Shown one piece after another: positions 5,919 through 54,932 of a DNA stretch of 60,000 nucleotides. The position numbers were made by a program, and so were the translations under genes. The DNA is from Botryllus schlosseri. Taxonomy: Eukaryota. The stretch lies in contig CM119372.1 of NCBI GenBank assembly GCA_051294905.1, positions 19,842,001 to 19,902,000 on the forward strand, read 5' to 3'. The notes beneath the pieces are model-generated. The model was given only the letters and a program-made list of their open reading frames with translations, made no database searches and was not told where the DNA came from. How positions within the stretch are numbered: position 1 is the stretch's first letter; each line of letters begins with the position of its first letter.

Positions 5919-8900
5919 CTAAGCTACTGCTTGCACCAATCTTGTGGATTGCGGGGTCATTCCTCGCCCGGAGCTCGGCCGCCTTTGGGTTGCCGCTCCC
6001 GACTGGTTCCATCTGTGGTATTGTTCTTTGAGCCAGTCTGGTGTCGGATACCGTTCCACCATTTCCATTGATTGAGGAATGTATTCGGTGCGGTATATGG
6101 TGTTTCCTTGCAGAGGCGCGTCGCTCATGAAAGCTCTGTTGTCAGGCTTGCACGACCGGGCGGGTTGCGCGGAGTGTCGGACGTAGTGCAGGCGCGTGGT
6201 GGATTGGCCTTCGAACTTTCCTAAATAAGTGTAACGAAGTTATAAGCATTCAATGAAAGGTTTGAAAATTACCACAGTAAGCATTGTAAAAGTAGATCTG
6301 GCCGGGGTGACGCTCACCTTTAGTAGTAAATCGGAGGGGGTCATTTTGAAGTGTTAAGATGTAATTACTTTTACAAAATACGCTCAAGCGTTTACCCGGC
6401 GGAAAAGCACCAACTCTTGAGGCAATACAGACTTGTACAAATTTAAAAATATTTTAGTAACCGAGACTTGGTGAACTATTTGCCAGAAAACTCGACGCCA
6501 CCTAGTCTCAGTATTCACCAGAATATGTTTGTATGTTCCAAATACCAATTATATCGACAATTGGACACGGTGCCGACGCGGCCCAAGGTAAGAACGAGAC
6601 CCACATCCGTGACATAAGCTAAATATCGCCACCCTATTGATTGGGAGACTATTGCATCGTTGGTTTTCAAGTTCGCCAACGGAGTACTCGGGAAGGTTTT
6701 GCCTCAACTTTCACTTTGCTTCCACAAAACTACCAATCTTTGACACTTGGTATGATACTTGGTGAAGTAGAGAACATTTTTACGATTTGTTCGCATCGCT
6801 CTTATGGGGGATTAGTCGTGACAACCGGCCGAAACAACGCGTATTTGCAGTTAGTCGCGAAGATGCGCCTCGCAATTTCGAAACCAGATGCTAATAGTAC
6901 GCCGCAAAAAACGTCATGAAGGACAAAAATGCATATAACGTCCTCTCATTTCCTTTCCCTGTCCATATCGATTCAGTAGTCTACAAATTGCGGAAAAAAA
7001 TTGCGTCAAAATTTTAATGAAGGATTTAGGCCAGGGGTTCTCAAAGGGTGGGCCATGGCCCACTGGTGGGCCACAGAGCATTCTGAGGTGGGCCACAGAG
7101 CTATTTAGAAAATTTCAGAATTAATGTAAGTTTAGTTATATTTCTTATGTTATTCGCTAAAAATATATTCGTATTATCTAATTATACGTAGGCTACATAA
7201 AGCTTTTCATCCGACTCTGATTAGACGTAGTGGCACGTATGAAGTCAGCATTTGCAAATCGAAAACGTTACGGAGAAACGGTGGCTTTTCTACTGGCTAC
7301 GGAGAAACGGTGGCTTTTTTCTACTGGCTATGACAACCTACGGCTAACAACAAATAAAATAATTTCAAGCGTATAATAACTGGAAGATAATGCTGAAGTA
7401 ACCAAGTATTCCGGCAGGGTCATATGTCGTAGGCCGTTGAAAGGGGTATGCAATGAACTCGCAATGAAGTGCAATTGATGTACAGATTTTCTGTACTTCG
7501 GCAGGCCGTATTATTGCAAGCTAAATAGCCATAATTGCAAATTATTAGCAACTTCTGGGGGAGGTATACTGCACCACCGCAGCGAATCTTAATGGATTGA
7601 GGATTTATCGGAGCGCATTCATCTTTGAAGTCAGTTTAAAATGTCCGGCCTGGAAATCATTGTACGTAATGAAAGAGTCACAGGAATTGATTGTATCATT
7701 GGATTGAATATTCTGACATCGCAACTTCAGTTGTTTTGGTACAAGACATACAAAGTACATCATGCATATTGAAAAATCCTTCTCCACTTCTCTGTAGTAC
7801 CCCATTCACCAACGAATTGTTCGATGCTGGCCCAGAATGATTATAATATTCCCCACAATAGTATCACTAAAGCCCCAATCACATAGTGCGGGGATCTGAT
7901 CATTGTGCTTCGCGACGCGAATGGAGCAGCGTACGAAAATAATCTATACTTAAGAGTTTTTAGCTTATGATCTACCAGGGCCGTAACTGCCGCACCCAAA
8001 CCCCCAATTGGGGGAGCTCGAAGGGGCCCAAGTTTATTTCGTTGGTCGTTTGTTAGAGGATGTTTATTCAACGTGAAAAAATTTTTCGCGCTTCGCGCGA
8101 TTTCATAGCCCTGGAGATCGAGATTTAAATATCATCATCATCAGTTAGAGAAAAATGCGCATATTTTAGAGAAATAGGCATATCGGCGCTGTCCATGACC
8201 AAGCAAAACAGGATTAGGTCACTAGTATATCAGGTGGGCCACAGCACATTTTTAAACCGGAAAATGGGCCATGGCCAAGAAAGGGCTGAGAACTAGGGAT
8301 GGTGTGAACTTGAGGTTCACGTTCGCGTTCTGTGTGTGAACCTCGGAAATTTAGAGGTTCGCGTTCACAACAGAACCTTGGTAGGTTCTGCACTGTGAAC
8401 CTTTTTCATATATTACAATTATAACATTATAACATCTTTGGTTCAAATTTATTGCATTTCAACTGCGGGCCACTCTATGCATGGCGCTGGCAGCATTAAA
8501 AATCAACACTAAACGAGCATGCACCTTGACAATCTCAAAAGTTTTACTTGCTTTGTTACAAAAGTTTGCTCGAAATATCCAGCTTTCCGTTTGTGAATAT
8601 TTAGTGACTCTCGGCTGTGAGCTTGACCCGCAATCACAAAACATCACGAGCGAAATACGTAGTCAGCAAATGATGCTTATTCAACCAATCAATAAGATTG
8701 ATATCGTTTTCTGATGTAAAAATTCGAGAATGCGTACGGGGTCAATCATGACTCAATATCTTTACTACATCATTAAAACCAAATCCTTGCGATTGAGGGG
8801 TTGACTACTGCTGTATAACTTCTTAATGGGGTGATATCGATAGCAAGTATAGAAGCCCATTATACACTCTGCTCAATATCAATGCAGCAATACCCAGACG

Positions 8901-11900
8901 CCGAATACATTGTCTGGTCTGGCCTAGACCGTTAAGGGGTAAGTGTATATTCCCTGATAAGTCCTTGTCGAAATTGTTGACAAAGCGATGGAAGATATTG
9001 ATTTTATGGGAATATTATATACTTTGATTGCCTCAGTTGATACATTTAGCGACGTTTAAAACGCATCATCATTGTTGCATTATGTGACCCGAGTCGTCGC
9101 TAGGTATCCTGTACAACTGTACATTAATATAGGCTATCACTTCATTGAAAGACAGGGTTGGAATTAGCAATATGATGTCACGTGACGTCATGAGGTTCAC
9201 GTTCGCGTTCACACAGAACCTTTCAAAAAGGTTCACGTTCACACGAACCTGAACCTTTCAGAGGTTCACACCATCCCTAAATGAGAACCCCTGATTTAGG
9301 CTAATGCAAGGTTGCTGAATCCGATTCCGTGCTCGGAATTTCTCTCTCACGTCAGACTTTTTCCGAATGAATTTTTCTCATTTTCATAAATTAATCAAAT
9401 TTCGGCTTCCGTTAGTGACATCACGGTAAGCATACACCAGCAAAATATCAAACATTGTTATTCAAATCACTCATTCGAATGGGTGAGTTTTAGGTAAGAT
9501 TAAACCCAGTGATTCTCTATCTTTGTTCAATAAGAAGCTCTTTTCGACCCATAAAATTACACTGGTCTACAAATTTAAAAACAAACGGCCCAAAAATTTT
9601 AGTGATCGATTTAGGCTAATATTACGCTGCTGAATCCGATTCTGTGCTCGGAATTTCTCTCTCACGTCAGACTTTTTCGGTATGTATTTTTCTCATTTTC
9701 ATAAATTAATCAAATTTCTGCTTTCGTTAGTGACATTACGGATCAAACATCAAATATTGATATTGAAATCATCTATAATAATGAAACCTGGGTGGTTGTA
9801 GAACAGCATACCTGAGTTTTCGGTGAACTTGAATCCAGGGGTTCTCTATCTTCTTTCGGTCAGGACCTCTTTTTGACCCATAAATTTATATGTGGATGCA
9901 ACTATTTTTAGTCGGTAGCAGTTATCATCTTTATATACCACTCTTCGTTTAGAGATTATGATTAGTAGCTCCGTACCTAATTTAGTTCCCTATGTTATCT
10001 ATGTTTATACATCTGTCCTGCAGACGTTATCGGTCAATGCATTTAATGACAGCATTCTGCTGTTTCGTAAAACGTAAAAGTTTGCAAACAAATAAACATT
10101 GTATTGGTGGTATATTATGTAGAAAAGAATTGTTCACTCCGGTATAGGACCCAAATATGGGGCTTGTTTTGAAACAGTAAAAGAAACAGGATGTCTACTT
10201 TTCAAAAGAAAAAGGTGCTTATCATGATAACTTGAAAGAATTTATCATCAATAATTTCCACCTTTACTTATCATGCTATCTTCTTCCCCAGTTTCCATAT
10301 ACTGATACATTTTATCCGAATCGAGGAAAGCAGTTTCTGAACTATTTTTCTTTTGGTTTATTGCAGAGATGAGCATGGATTAGGATTGGGATGAGGAAAA
10401 AACGGATTTGTGCAATTTTGTCGGGTTTGGATCGCATTAGGATTTCAGATTTTTTTGTAATGGATTAGGATTGGATTTACCGATTTTCGGGGAGATTGAT
10501 GTTCTGTGACGAATGGCGACGAGGTTTTTCGTCCTACCAAAGTTACTTCATGTACTTTGGCACTCATTATGCGTTTTATTTCTTTTTACATAATTTTAGG
10601 CATACGATGAAGGCTTTTTACGAGGCATTCCAAGTTTATATCGGATTAGGATCAGGCATGGCCTACTAAATACAGTAAGTACTGCAAGTAGCTAAAATCT
10701 ACTCGAGTACCTCGAAAAAGTAGAAATTTTCAACATTATAATATTTCAAAAACGTGATGTGACAGAGCAAAAATAACGTCGGATTCGTATTCAGCGCCCC
10801 CAAATTAGGCATACTTGACCCAAAGAAGTCCTGGCGCAAAAATCGCGTAGACCAGTGATTATTTGAAATATTCAGGTTTTCCTAGTAAGACGAATTGAAT
10901 AAACGACCCATCTATCTTTTTCGAGAACTGAAGTAGGTTTTGTCTATGCTTGTGCTACTTACACAAGTGGTTATATCTTTCGACTACTTCCGCCTCTACT
11001 TCACGTTATCCAAGGCAAATCTAATTACTTTCTACACTTTGTATTTTGTAAAGTAGAGAGTTGTGTTTCCTGAAACTAATAACGTGGATACGGACATTTG
11101 TGGCGTTGCTGATGCGTTTACTGAGTACCAACGCTGAATACCTTGACCCCCTCTGCGTATCTCATACCTGACGGGTGCAGCGATTGATCACGCGGCTTCG
11201 GCTGCTCCCGGGCCGTGTTCCACTTCTTGAAATCCGTCCTGTAATTCGTGGTGCCCGAGAACGGCTTCGACTGCGCCATTCTGACTTGCGGCTTTTTCGA
11301 CTCGGCCGGACGGCAGCGCACATGCCGGAACTCCAGCTGACTGGTCGTCTGAAGGTCTATATCTCCTGTCGGCTTCCGGTACTTGTCCATCTCGTGGCGG
11401 TACGGACGCTCCACGGGCCACGCCACGAAGCTGTCGCGGAACTCAGAAGAAGACGCGATAGGCTCATTGGACATATACTGCGTCTGCGGTGGTTTTGCGC
11501 TTTCCGCGGGCAGCGCCCTGGTGCCTTGGTACGCGTCTCGGAATGTGGTTTTCGTGTCCATGGATACCGAGGGAGCCGCGTATCGCTTGGGCTCGCGTGG
11601 AGGCCTCGGCTCGAGATTGTGTGGAACGAAATTGAGCTTGTGGATGGTCTCGCTTTGTAAAGGCACCGCGGATTGAAACGCCACATTTGGGGGTTTCGCC
11701 GATTCCCTGGGCGGTTGTATGTAGCCCACGTAGTCCTGTCGAAAGAAATGGGGAGTTAGGCGTTGACCACGGCGCGCGCCGATCGGTGTTACGTTACCCT
11801 TCTGAAAGTGGAAATGTTTTCCATTTTTTGCTCCGGCAGTTTGTACTCTCTGTTGTCCTTATAGCTTTCTCTCGGCGGCAGAGCCCATTTTTTGTAATCG

Positions 11901-51052: not shown

Positions 51053-53565
51053 AACACTTTCCCGGCCATTTTCCGCGATGCAAAATTTGGATCACACTCA
51101 CGAGCCTCAAATTTACGCGGAACGGATTCCCCTACCCCACACGCCACTGTTATTATGTTAAAATTTGTTCGCAGTGTTGACACCAAAATATACGAGTATA
51201 TAACACTGCACACGTCGGTCGTGAATAGCTTTTCTATTATATTGATGTATTTCCTCTTTTTCGGCATCTTCATGGATTTTTGCTTGCTTGAATATTTATT
51301 GCTGAAATATAATGTCAAGAAATACTTTGTGAAATTCGTGATGACCAATGGCTCGACTCGACGCCTTTATCCACGAATGAAGGAATTTCCACACACATCG
51401 GTTTTGTGAATCAAGACAGGGAGTGCAATCCTCGACTGCTCACAGCGTCTGCCTCTCCAATCCTGGGCTCTTCCACATTTTACTCATTTTCCAATTTAAG
51501 AGATTGGGCTTTAATCTGAATGACATGCCATTAGGGCTTCTCCAGGAACAACATTAGCTGCTGGGCTGACAAGCAGGAATCTGGTCAGATCCAGAATAGC
51601 TTTAGTCAGGGGCTATGTTCGGTAGATTGTTCAGCATTTCGGTTTACCAATTGTTGTCGCAGTGGTGGGGGTAGTATATAGTGTACCTTCCACATCTCAA
51701 ACGTTATTTGCGAGGCAGGCATAGGTTGACTCAAGAATTTCCACTTAATTGTTGGAAGTTCATCTGGGCTCCTTCTCGTCATCTGATACGCCTAAGCGGG
51801 TCGTGCTGAAAGTCGGCAGGTCAGGAATCATGAAGAACAATCGATCAGGTGCAAAATTACCAGTGCAGTCAAAACACCATGACTGCAATAACAACAACAG
51901 CAACACCAGTTTAATAATTAAGCTTTATGATGTGTTTATAAGAAGCCGTAAATTTTAACCCTTATATAAGCAAGGCGTGAAAACACGCAGCATTCTGACA
52001 ATCATCTGGGCACATTTTTAGTTCGCTTTTCTGTCATCTCTTCCACGCTACAGTCGAACCATTTTACGTAAGAAAACTGATGATTTCTTGCTTTTTATCA
52101 GCTATGCTTGTTTTTGAGTATTTGGGGAAGATTTGTGTGTTGATTTTGCCTATCCACAATTTATCAATTTATATTAAAATGAATACTATTTATTTCCATC
52201 CATGGCAGGAATTTGATCAATTTGTTTTCTAAACTTCAAATTTACATGGGCACCAATTATTTTAGTAAACTTGTTAGTAGAACTTCGTTTTTGGTTTATT
52301 TAGTTTTACTCGGTTCAGTCGACATTTAACATGTCTTTAATCGCGACTATATATGAAATCAAAATCATGTTTTGCGGCCGTGATTTAGGTGTCACGTTAC
52401 AGGATAGATAATGGTAAACTAACCTGCACTCATCAAAATATTTACGTTTGTTCGGTATGTTTATGCCAACGAGAAGTGGAATTTATAAGATACTTTGATG
52501 AGAAGAAACACCAAGTCACGTTTAAAATAAATTCTGGGTTTTCTTAACATGGAACTAGATTTGTGATTGCAGTGTAATACCGATATAGCTTAGGCGCTTA
52601 TTCGGGGTTTTGACGTATGGTTAGATAAAGACATTTCTGACATTTACTACGATTAGGTATAAGAGAATATTCTGGATTCTACCGAATGAAACGACAATTT
52701 CACATCACCCTCGCGTAATTACGACGTCAAATCAAATAAGAGACAACGAACGTATTGTGAATCATCGTTGAAATTGCCTCGGAACCCTGGAAATTGGGCA
52801 GCATTTTTATAAATGAATTAATGTTATTGCGCAAAAATCCGCGATTGGGATCTTGCACAGTGCTAATATTAGAATGCGGTTAGCGGCGATACTCTGCTCC
52901 TCCGGGCCATATTTGATAGCACCTTTATGGCATTAGGAGAAAAGAGTCGAGATTCTTAACCAGTCACTCCTATAGTCTGGTTTTCCAGCGGTTATACACT
53001 CTAACCTTTCGATCTTGACACAGTAAGTCCGACACGGTTGATCTTTATTATATATAATAATAAATCCATTAAAGACATATATATTATATAAATATACAGT
53101 GCTACTTTGAAGAAAAGTTACGCAAGAATGTTTATGGAGAATGCCACTTCTTAGATACTATCTGTCCCCTTACGAAGTGGGTCCCTCTTGGTAGCCATGC
53201 GACGCGATATTAAGGTGTCGATTATGACCAGGAAATAAATATCGATGTTTTGTTGGTCAGCGGAAAAGAAAAGTACAGTGTAATGGCAACCGGGAACACA
53301 AACATCTATTCGGCTATACGATGAGCCTAACCAAGCGTGTATGACGAGGGTATGTTTTGCTTATAGCTTGTTGAGCATGGCATGCGATCTGTACCACCGC
53401 ACTAATGAGGGTCATCTATATGCTACTCGCATTGCTCATAGTGCATGTGTTGTGCAAATGTATCTGCCTTTATGTAAAAAGTAATGTTCCAACAGCGTTC
53501 ACAGTAACGGAAGACGACGGACAAGTATACGATGAAAAGTTCGCAGATTTCCACGTTTTCCCAGG

Positions 53566-54230
53566 TTAAATTCGTTGATAGCGATGGTTTCGTCTGTTAG
53601 GTCTACATCCGAAAAATTTGTTGTTCGAGATAAAGTCCAGAGGAGCTCCGAAGCCGCACTTTGCGATGCAAACCGCTCGCTTATTATACGCGCATATATA
53701 CCGATGTCCGTTGGCCTGTCTCTTGCGCTTGTGAAGTCGCGGCAATAAGGACGCTGAACGGAAGATATAGGGAATTACTAGACCGATCCAACTTGGCGAC
53801 GCGACATTTCAACGCCCCTTATCAGTTTCATTTTACACTCACCCGCTGAGCCTACGTAGTACCAGTCGTAATTTTGGAAGCTACTGATTGGCGTCGGCGG
53901 TACGTCTTCGTAATCGGGTAATAGCACCTTTGATTTCATAATCGTGGGGTAGTTTTCGACGATTCTTCTCAGCAGCGTAGGCACTTGCGATGATCGGCCC
54001 GGATTCTGCAAAGCGCGATGTCAATCATTAACATCTATTCCTTTCATGGTGGTATTAGACTGTGAACTACTGTAAATTATCTCCTTTTGTTCGCAACGAA
54101 AGTTTCGCTATTTATAGTTTGTGGATCTATATTTACATGCAGCAATACTTACATGGAAATCATTACGCTTGGCAGAAGCGCAAACGATGAGCTGCACCAG
54201 TACGATCCAAATCAGAGATTTCGCGTTCAT
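53566..54230 (-). CDS. Secreted peptide precursor A, natriuretic peptide/osteocrin-like, 3 exons, 142 aa
   Basis: Exons 54230-54153, 54005-53843, 53753-53566 join in frame (donors gtaagt and gtgagt; acceptors ttgcag and ttcag). Protein: MNAKSLIWIVLVQLIVCASA-KRNDFHNPGRSSQVPTLLRRIVENYPTIMKSKVLLPDYEDVPPTPISSFQNYDWYYVGSAASLLPRLH-KRKR-QANGHRYICAYNKRAVCIAKCGFGAPLDFISNNKFFGCRPNRRNHRYQRI*. It has a signal peptide, a furin-type site and a Cys-ringed FGxxLDxI motif. Confidence 0.85.
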
Positions 54231-54932
54231 CGCGTGCTTGCCGCTCGATTCTGACAGTGATTAATGAGTTTTTAACGACCTTTTCGCATTCAATGTCGAG
54301 CACTTGCGGGTCGGAAATGCCTGATAGCCGGCCGAACACTGTCTCTTCTTTCGAGCTTTCTTCTTTTTCCAATCGGCGTGTATATCCCAAGAGAGATTCT
54401 TTGCAGATCTTCCAGTCGTCAGATACAAGTTCCTCCGAGTGATATTTCCCAGTATGTGCCGCGGTGGGAGGTGTCTAATACAAAACTGACGCCTATCCCG
54501 TTCGATTTCAAGTGTCTATTTCCTCTAACGATAGTCGCAGATCCTATTGAAAATCTGCCGGCTCGCGCTTTTATACTGACCGGCACTCTCCGAAAAACCA
54601 CATCATGCACTTCTTCTTCCGACCGATTCAAGTTCTCCATTTTGAATTGTCGGCCGCTGCACGTAGGCGAGTTGGTAGCACTGATGGGGCATTGTCACGA
54701 GTTTGATGGCTGTCGCGAATGACAGTAATTTTATAATACGCGTTAAAGTTATTTCTGACGCATTATGATGATTTTCTCCCAGTTCGTTTGTCGAAGAACC
54801 GAAACATAAACTGGCCGTAATCACCATTCCGCGAGAATAAACTGATTTTGGGAATTTTCATGCTCACACTTGATGAGTTTCCTGCGTTGTTTGCTTCACG
54901 AGTTGCAGATTCTTGAATCATATGCTATACAG

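Follow-up and report, generated by a model that had tools for sequence, protein, structure and literature searches.

Natriuretic peptides of the ANP, BNP and CNP type (Pfam family ANP, PF00212) are made as secreted precursors in which a leader, a pro-region and a basic processing site precede a C-terminal peptide closed into a ring by a disulfide bond. The ring has F-G after its first cysteine, a conserved D-R-I of which the arginine contacts the receptor, and (L)-G-C at its close. A 17-residue ring, C-x15-C, is given as the hallmark of the family in one study, which also reports natriuretic-like candidates from jellyfish, leech and centipede venom tissues that were found by family hidden Markov models (HMMs) and carry the same spacing (PMC12343078). 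Osteocrin, also called musclin (Pfam family Musclin, PF11037), has two natriuretic-like motifs and binds NPR-C, not NPR-A or NPR-B, according to PMC11291853. A further study describes natriuretic peptides as vertebrate-only and their receptors as having orthologs across animals, the ligands of the non-vertebrate orthologs being mostly unknown; ten motif candidates, including sequences from Ciona and Oikopleura with two cysteines 12-18 residues apart, were judged non-orthologous there (PMC6878697). Nppc and the ANP domain are likewise given as novelties of vertebrate origin in PMC1868935. Here, we describe a gene of the tunicate Botryllus schlosseri whose product shares a small number of ring positions with these peptides. 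It lies in a 60,000-nt stretch of genomic DNA (assembly GCA_051294905.1, contig CM119372.1, positions 19,842,001 to 19,902,000 of the forward strand), referred to as the window and numbered from its first letter, and probably encodes the secreted precursor of a signalling peptide, as a genuine, expressed, single-copy tunicate gene.

The gene is encoded on the minus strand, as are all of its features described below, and consists of three coding exons which, when joined by coordinate with a script, give a 429-nt coding sequence for 142 amino acids with one stop, the terminal TAA. Coding exon 1 (54230-54153) begins with MNAKSLIWIVLVQLIVCASA and contributes 26 codons, covering the predicted signal peptide and the first 6 residues of the pro-region. 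Coding exon 2 (54005-53843) encodes 54 residues plus one base, all belonging to the pro-region, and coding exon 3 (53753-53566) completes the split codon and adds 61 residues, namely the end of the pro-region, the processing site KRKR and the mature peptide, followed by TAA at 53568-53566. Of 24 listed sequencing runs, all from a single organism, four (X2, X4, X5 and X23) were chosen for mapping to positions 53000-54800, X23 being the only one of these four recorded as RNA. Intron 1 (54152-54006, 147 nt, GTAAGT..TTGCAG, phase 0) is spliced out in contigs of two of these four runs (X4 and X5; junction 54005/54153), and intron 2 (53842-53754, 89 nt, GTGAGT..GTTCAG, phase 1) in one X4 contig and in four raw RNA-seq reads from X23 with four different starts (junction 53843/53753). 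The X23 junction reads carry a different base at 53753, which changes Ala81 to Glu. The three-exon gene is confirmed as real, spliced and expressed, and the in-frame exon structure with both junctions, which the original prediction had drawn from the DNA letters alone, stands as proposed.

The precursor starts with a hydrophobic leader (Kyte-Doolittle 11-residue maximum 3.0) that is predicted to act as a signal peptide (residues 1-20, 54230-54171), with cleavage predicted after an A-S-A motif and before residue 21. The pro-region, with a pI of 9.2, is not acidic and leads to the predicted processing site KRKR at residues 89-92 (53730-53719), which is directly followed by Gln93. The predicted mature peptide (53718-53569) comprises 50 amino acids with a mass of 5.85 kDa, a pI of 10.3, a net charge of about +9 and cysteines at positions 101, 109, 113 and 130. 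C113 and C130 are predicted to form a disulfide bond that closes an 18-residue ring, CGFGAPLDFISNNKFFGC, encoded by codons 113-130 at 53658-53605, and the ring is followed by a basic tail of 12 residues ending in QRI. Ring coordinates, KRKR and the glutamine start were reproduced exactly as first reported, and a second pair of cysteines, conserved in all three members, had been missed. The features general to secreted prohormone and neuropeptide precursors, specifically a leader, a conserved dibasic site, a conserved short core and transcription, are all present, with processing itself being predicted.

Relatives were identified by a phmmer search of 1.84 billion representative proteins with exon 3 as the query, which returned three proteins at E<=1e-3, two of them true relatives. 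The first, P0005, is a 139-aa protein of the ascidian Styela clava (E 4.3e-11) annotated as 'uncharacterized protein LOC120342433', bearing out the earlier suspicion that the family might already be annotated in related species. The second, P0006, is a 144-aa protein translated from a 1290-nt contig (E 2.7e-10), and in the genome its matches to the three exons score 18.8, 74.8 and 53.4 bits. Aligning the three members gives 26 invariant columns, including all four cysteines, with the common spacing C-x8-C-x3-C-x16-C, and 13 of the 18 ring positions, summarized by the string AKCGFGAPLDxISxNxxFGC. The ring is identical to that of each relative at 15 of 18 positions; exon 2 shows 38-61% identity, the upper value being reached against residues 17-77 of P0006. 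Hydrophobic leaders (Kyte-Doolittle maxima of 2.8-3.0 in P0005 and P0006), the motifs LL[RK]R, P[DE]Y and NY[DE]W of the pro-region, a cleavage site of the form [KR]R-Gln, a proline two residues past the ring and the C-terminal QRI are kept in all three sequences, and all three mature peptides are strongly basic (net charge about +9 to +11, pI 10.3-11.5). The reading as a secreted, dibasic-processed precursor of a cysteine-ring peptide gains support from this conservation of leader, processing site and ring, the processing remaining a prediction. Conservation of both ring cysteines and FGxxLDxI had been set beforehand as a test, and both relatives keep them, in the form FGAPLDxI.

The top-scoring phmmer match, P0004 (E 3.7e-28), was rejected as a relative. 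In this 1902-aa protein a 75-aa unit is repeated about 25 times. Each repeat scores about 23 bits and, aligned over 49 residues with the complete mature peptide, reaches 33-35% identity, and the four cysteines are kept in none of them. Its E-value is misleading because it adds up copies of one weak match, and P0004 may represent a satellite that has been translated, perhaps one that arose from a copy of exon 3 of the peptide gene.

Exon 3 is single copy in the 495.5-Mb genome, and single-protein genome searches returned no paralog, the next-best hits (E 0.79 and 1.9) containing stops. Word-based searches of protein databases added no further member (the 'longer' search yielded 3 candidates, 0 at E<=10), and in a profile search the only 2 of 251 candidates at E<=1 were the two relatives already known. 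In a protein language-model search with P0005, 7 of the 10 nearest clusters listed were neuropeptide or peptide-hormone precursors with scores of 0.80-0.84, to be read as leads only, and none of the listed neighbors was ANP. The mature peptide alone reached bacterial MobA clusters at only 0.76 in the same kind of search, a kinship discarded as noise. Neither Pfam nor the language-model searches pointed more strongly to a different family, for instance pedal peptide/orcokinin. None of the main texts in the literature searched contains the family's motif strings or the gene symbol from Styela, supplements and figures lying outside that search. In our reading, the three sequences represent a tunicate-restricted family of conserved secreted signalling-peptide precursors, so far annotated only as 'uncharacterized'.

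The region 53000-54800 is highly polymorphic: over about 1.5 kb, the four runs together show 36 variant places plus a single 1-base deletion, and mapped contigs are mostly 95-99% identical to the window. Fifteen variant sites fall into the coding sequence, 8 of which are synonymous, with the other 7 altering six codons (K52M, A81E, L87H, N95I, Y103T and A107G). Within the 18 ring codons only two changes are found, both synonymous; three codons are replaced among the 20 residues before the ring.

The original prediction had placed the precursor in the natriuretic/osteocrin family. The resemblance itself can be readily laid out: with one extra glycine between the first cysteine and F-G, the elements F-G, L-D-x-I and G-C fall into one register with the CNP ring, with eight ring positions shared, and the FGxPLD-type motif agrees with osteocrin at 7 of 10 positions. 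These counts are arithmetically right for the strings that were quoted, the comparators being those quoted strings and generally known motifs. F-G and F-G-C are invariant in all three members, and the positions shared with natriuretic peptides coincide with invariant positions of the tunicate family, the match being one made by eye that lies below database noise. The overall layout, a leader, a pro-region and a C-terminal ring peptide after a basic site, is also that of ANP, BNP and CNP, with the processing again predicted. Similar to the natriuretic-like candidates reported outside vertebrates, this is a cysteine-ring peptide proposed on motif grounds. As judged from the published descriptions alone, it differs from the venom, Ciona and Oikopleura candidates in escaping the Pfam ANP model, in being non-venom and in being conserved across species with RNA support.

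Set against this resemblance is a series of results that weigh against kinship with natriuretic peptides or, in the case of the last few, against the precursor reading more broadly. A Pfam hmmscan at E<=10 gave no match to ANP or Musclin for any of five queries (exon 3, exon 2, the mature peptide, P0005 and P0006), the ANP cut-off being 27 bits and HMMER filters possibly concealing scores under about E 0.1. When the ANP model was run over the whole genome, 2 of 26 scored candidates, one on C6 and one on C5, matched at E<=10, both below the cut-off, and 3 of 14 prokaryote genomes used as controls also gave matches. An equivalent Musclin scan returned nothing in the genome and nothing in the control genomes either, and thus has little power. 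Sequence searches of the PDB at E<=10 gave 9 matches for the family profile and 13 for the mature peptide, with no natriuretic peptide chain among them; chance matches such as ARNT2 and PsaC score 12-15 bits. All three members have a ring of 18 residues (C-x16-C) as opposed to 17, the first cysteine being one place off, and in place of D-R-I the aspartate and isoleucine are invariant around a middle residue that is F, Q or T. The tunicate peptides further carry the 12-residue basic tail ending in QRI, and their second conserved cysteine pair, located upstream of the ring, is unknown in the natriuretic family. With respect to osteocrin, whose two motifs are linear and without a cysteine ring, the tunicate peptide has a single motif placed inside such a ring. 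MTHFR and CLCN6-type genes neighbor vertebrate NPPA and NPPB. No linkage of this type was found for the peptide gene, which lies on C2, with MTHFR on C11 and CLC genes on C11, C8, C16, C12 and C10. This linkage test is weak because tunicate gene order is much rearranged, and the neighbors within the window (an IRF-type exon, a SAXO-type gene and a weak P-loop match) are uninformative for synteny. Three sequences of the family were found in all. The leader and its cleavage were judged by inspection, the leader from its hydrophobic core and its Kyte-Doolittle 11-residue maximum. An AlphaFold2 model of exon 3 based on the three-sequence alignment reached a mean predicted local distance difference test (pLDDT) of 57.9 and a predicted template modelling score (pTM) of 0.36, and because it is too weak, a disulfide map is not derivable from it. 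Finally, run X2 covers 53079-53551 and 54163-54540, which are parts of the untranslated regions (UTRs) only, and has no contig over exons 2 and 3; its 498-nt contig tracks the 3' UTR through 53079-53551, after which 25 letters follow that differ from the genome. An over-divergent allele, a chimeric contig or another transcript form are possible causes of this break at 53551.

These results do not establish that the peptide belongs to the natriuretic or osteocrin family. As a whole, the earlier reading holds for a spliced, expressed cysteine-ring precursor in an invertebrate and falls short in its family assignment, for which no statistical test gave support. Both ANP-model matches in the genome were rejected as chance. 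The better one (20.7 bits, E 0.39), at C6:26705757-26705816 on the minus strand (locus L002 1462-1572), is a 36-aa frame without a second cysteine; it contains a CFG..RIG-like string and adjoins, as judged by eye, a retroelement-like RNase H frame. The C5 match is without a closed ring.

Receptors of the natriuretic type are encoded in the same genome, where the cyclase domain has 26 exon-level matches and the ANF_receptor domain has 8. An open reading frame (ORF) at C5:15724847-15725335 on the minus strand (locus L006 2784-3563, extending into L009) has 8 PDB matches at E<=0.01, all of them natriuretic peptide receptors (NPR-C or NPR-A), the best being NPR-C with an E-value of 2.4e-10. ANF_receptor, kinase and cyclase domains are present in each of the 6 database matches of this ORF at E<=1e-5, and 5 of these matches are named as teleost guanylate cyclase or ANP receptor 1-like proteins. 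The ectodomain continues downstream, and over the next 20 kb neither a kinase nor a cyclase exon was found, though a longer intron may intervene; because of this, the C5 gene may be NPR-C-like. A best-matching ectodomain of the NPR-C kind recalls osteocrin, which is an NPR-C ligand (PMC11291853). Membrane receptor guanylyl cyclases are represented by a gene at C16:2487644-2493486 (minus strand), with kinase-homology and cyclase exons that are 52-76% identical to a fish NPR1-like protein, by a tandem pair at C9:21103757-21111639 and C9:21143071-21147300 (minus strand), and by a further gene at C9:17859089-17872230 (plus strand) with a divergent ANF_receptor ectodomain. Weak ectodomain matches lie upstream of the C16 cyclase and of the C9 tandem pair. 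Prediction of a complex between the mature peptide and two fish NPR1-like ectodomains, used as stand-ins (P0008, residues 45-472), gave 0.03 against a mark of 0.34, without controls, and speaks neither for nor against binding.

We propose the following path from precursor to ligand. The leader would be removed after residue 20 and a prohormone convertase would cut after KRKR, whereupon the new N-terminal glutamine might cyclize to pyroglutamate. Two disulfides would form, one of them closing the 18-residue ring, and the resulting 50-aa, strongly basic product would act as an extracellular ligand with the invariant uncharged ring as its putative receptor-binding face. The most specific receptor candidate would be of the natriuretic-receptor type: the ring contains the F-G..L-D-x-I..G-C pattern of natriuretic peptides and the FGxPLD pattern of osteocrin, and the genome encodes an NPR-C-like ectodomain and NPR1-like cyclases. 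We regard an NPR-type ligand as a tentative idea, on the doubtful side, and common ancestry with vertebrate natriuretic peptides or osteocrin as unlikely.

The alternative that survives best is a lineage-specific hormone or neuropeptide unrelated to natriuretic peptides, in which FG..LD.I..GC arose by chance or convergence and which acts on a receptor of another class, for instance a G protein-coupled receptor. We take this to be a serious possibility, falling somewhat short of an even chance. It draws on the fact that the resemblance amounts to about 7-8 residues, picked post hoc and scoring below database noise, that the language-model neighbors are assorted neuropeptide precursors without ANP, and that only three sequences, all from tunicates, belong to the family. 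Against it stand the observations that exactly those positions in which the peptide agrees with natriuretic peptides do not vary across these three sequences, and that an orphan NPR-type ectodomain is found in the same genome.

A further alternative is true family membership, that is, descent from a chordate ancestor shared with CNP-type peptides and osteocrin, followed by displacement of the first cysteine by one residue, loss of the arginine and gain of a second disulfide, with signalling through NPR-type receptors. The single register of F, G, L-D, I and G-C (relative to a quoted or generally known comparator), positions that do not vary among the three tunicate sequences, the common precursor layout, the presence of NPR-type receptors and the position of tunicates as the vertebrates' sister group all argue in this direction. 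Against it stand the absence of ANP, Musclin and natriuretic PDB matches, ring size and arginine position, which fail the hallmarks of the family, and the lack of shared synteny with the two neighbors tested (MTHFR and CLC). A published search moreover judged the natriuretic-like motifs that it found in non-vertebrates to be probably convergent (PMC6878697). We consider this explanation unlikely.

A cationic, disulfide-stabilized host-defense (antimicrobial) peptide from a blood-cell precursor would suit the high charge and pI of all three mature peptides and the known yield of cationic peptides from tunicate blood cells, but is very unlikely given that the conserved core is an uncharged ring motif and not a charge pattern, that ring polymorphism is exclusively synonymous, that the pro-region is not anionic, and that the gene is single copy without paralogs, whereas defense peptides tend toward fast-evolving families.

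Returning to the peptide gene, its transcript ends can be approximated from the mapped contigs. The 5' UTR extends over 54540-54231 (about 310 nt) and is covered by contigs from X2 (54163-54540), X4 (54153-54477) and X5 (54153-54426). Between an in-frame TAA located 11 codons upstream and the ATG at 54230 there is no other in-frame ATG, and an upstream ORF of 5 codons (ATG..TAA) is found within the 5' UTR at 54289-54272 on the minus strand. A TATA-like box, TATAAAAG, at 54575-54568 lies about 30 nt upstream of the RNA contig start (54540, run X2) and may serve as part of the promoter. The 3' UTR is assigned to 53565-53044, with AATAAA at 53049-53044 as the putative poly(A) signal; contigs end at 53079 (X2), 53228 (X5) and 53285 (X4). 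Judged by the contig ends, the mRNA is about 1.3 kb long, in agreement with the 1290-nt contig that carries P0006.

Elsewhere in the window, a 216-aa frame at 1403-2050 on the plus strand matches the IRF-3 association domain (PF10401, E 1e-10) and probably belongs to an IRF-family gene as one of its exons, and exons of a SAXO1/2-type gene (PF05217, E 1.3e-19 and 1.3e-4) are located at 5922-6239 and 11121-11858 on the minus strand. Among animals, GH6 domains are a hallmark of tunicate cellulose synthase. Two GH6-domain frames of 545 and 531 aa, 43 kb apart, are found at C9:15025585-15025875 and C9:15068570-15068854 on the minus strand and are consistent with tandem cellulose synthase genes of the tunicate type. 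That the genome is an invertebrate one, as initially presumed, agrees with these domains and with the tunicate Styela clava as the nearest named relative, tunicates being the vertebrates' closest kin.

If the peptide is a true homolog, it would be the first non-vertebrate ligand of the natriuretic/osteocrin lineage with both conservation between species and RNA backing, a ring peptide for NPR-type receptors would already have existed in the ancestor that tunicates and vertebrates share, and its form would unite the natriuretic cysteine ring with the FGxPLD motif of osteocrin. Should it bind an NPR-type receptor, the ligand-receptor pair would predate vertebrates and ancestral features of the ring would be revealed; if it does not, it would still represent a new tunicate peptide-hormone family. 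With a conserved, expressed ring peptide that bears the receptor-binding motif's core, a candidate NPR-C-like ectodomain and NPR1-like cyclases all encoded in one genome, the question of the ligand becomes directly testable.

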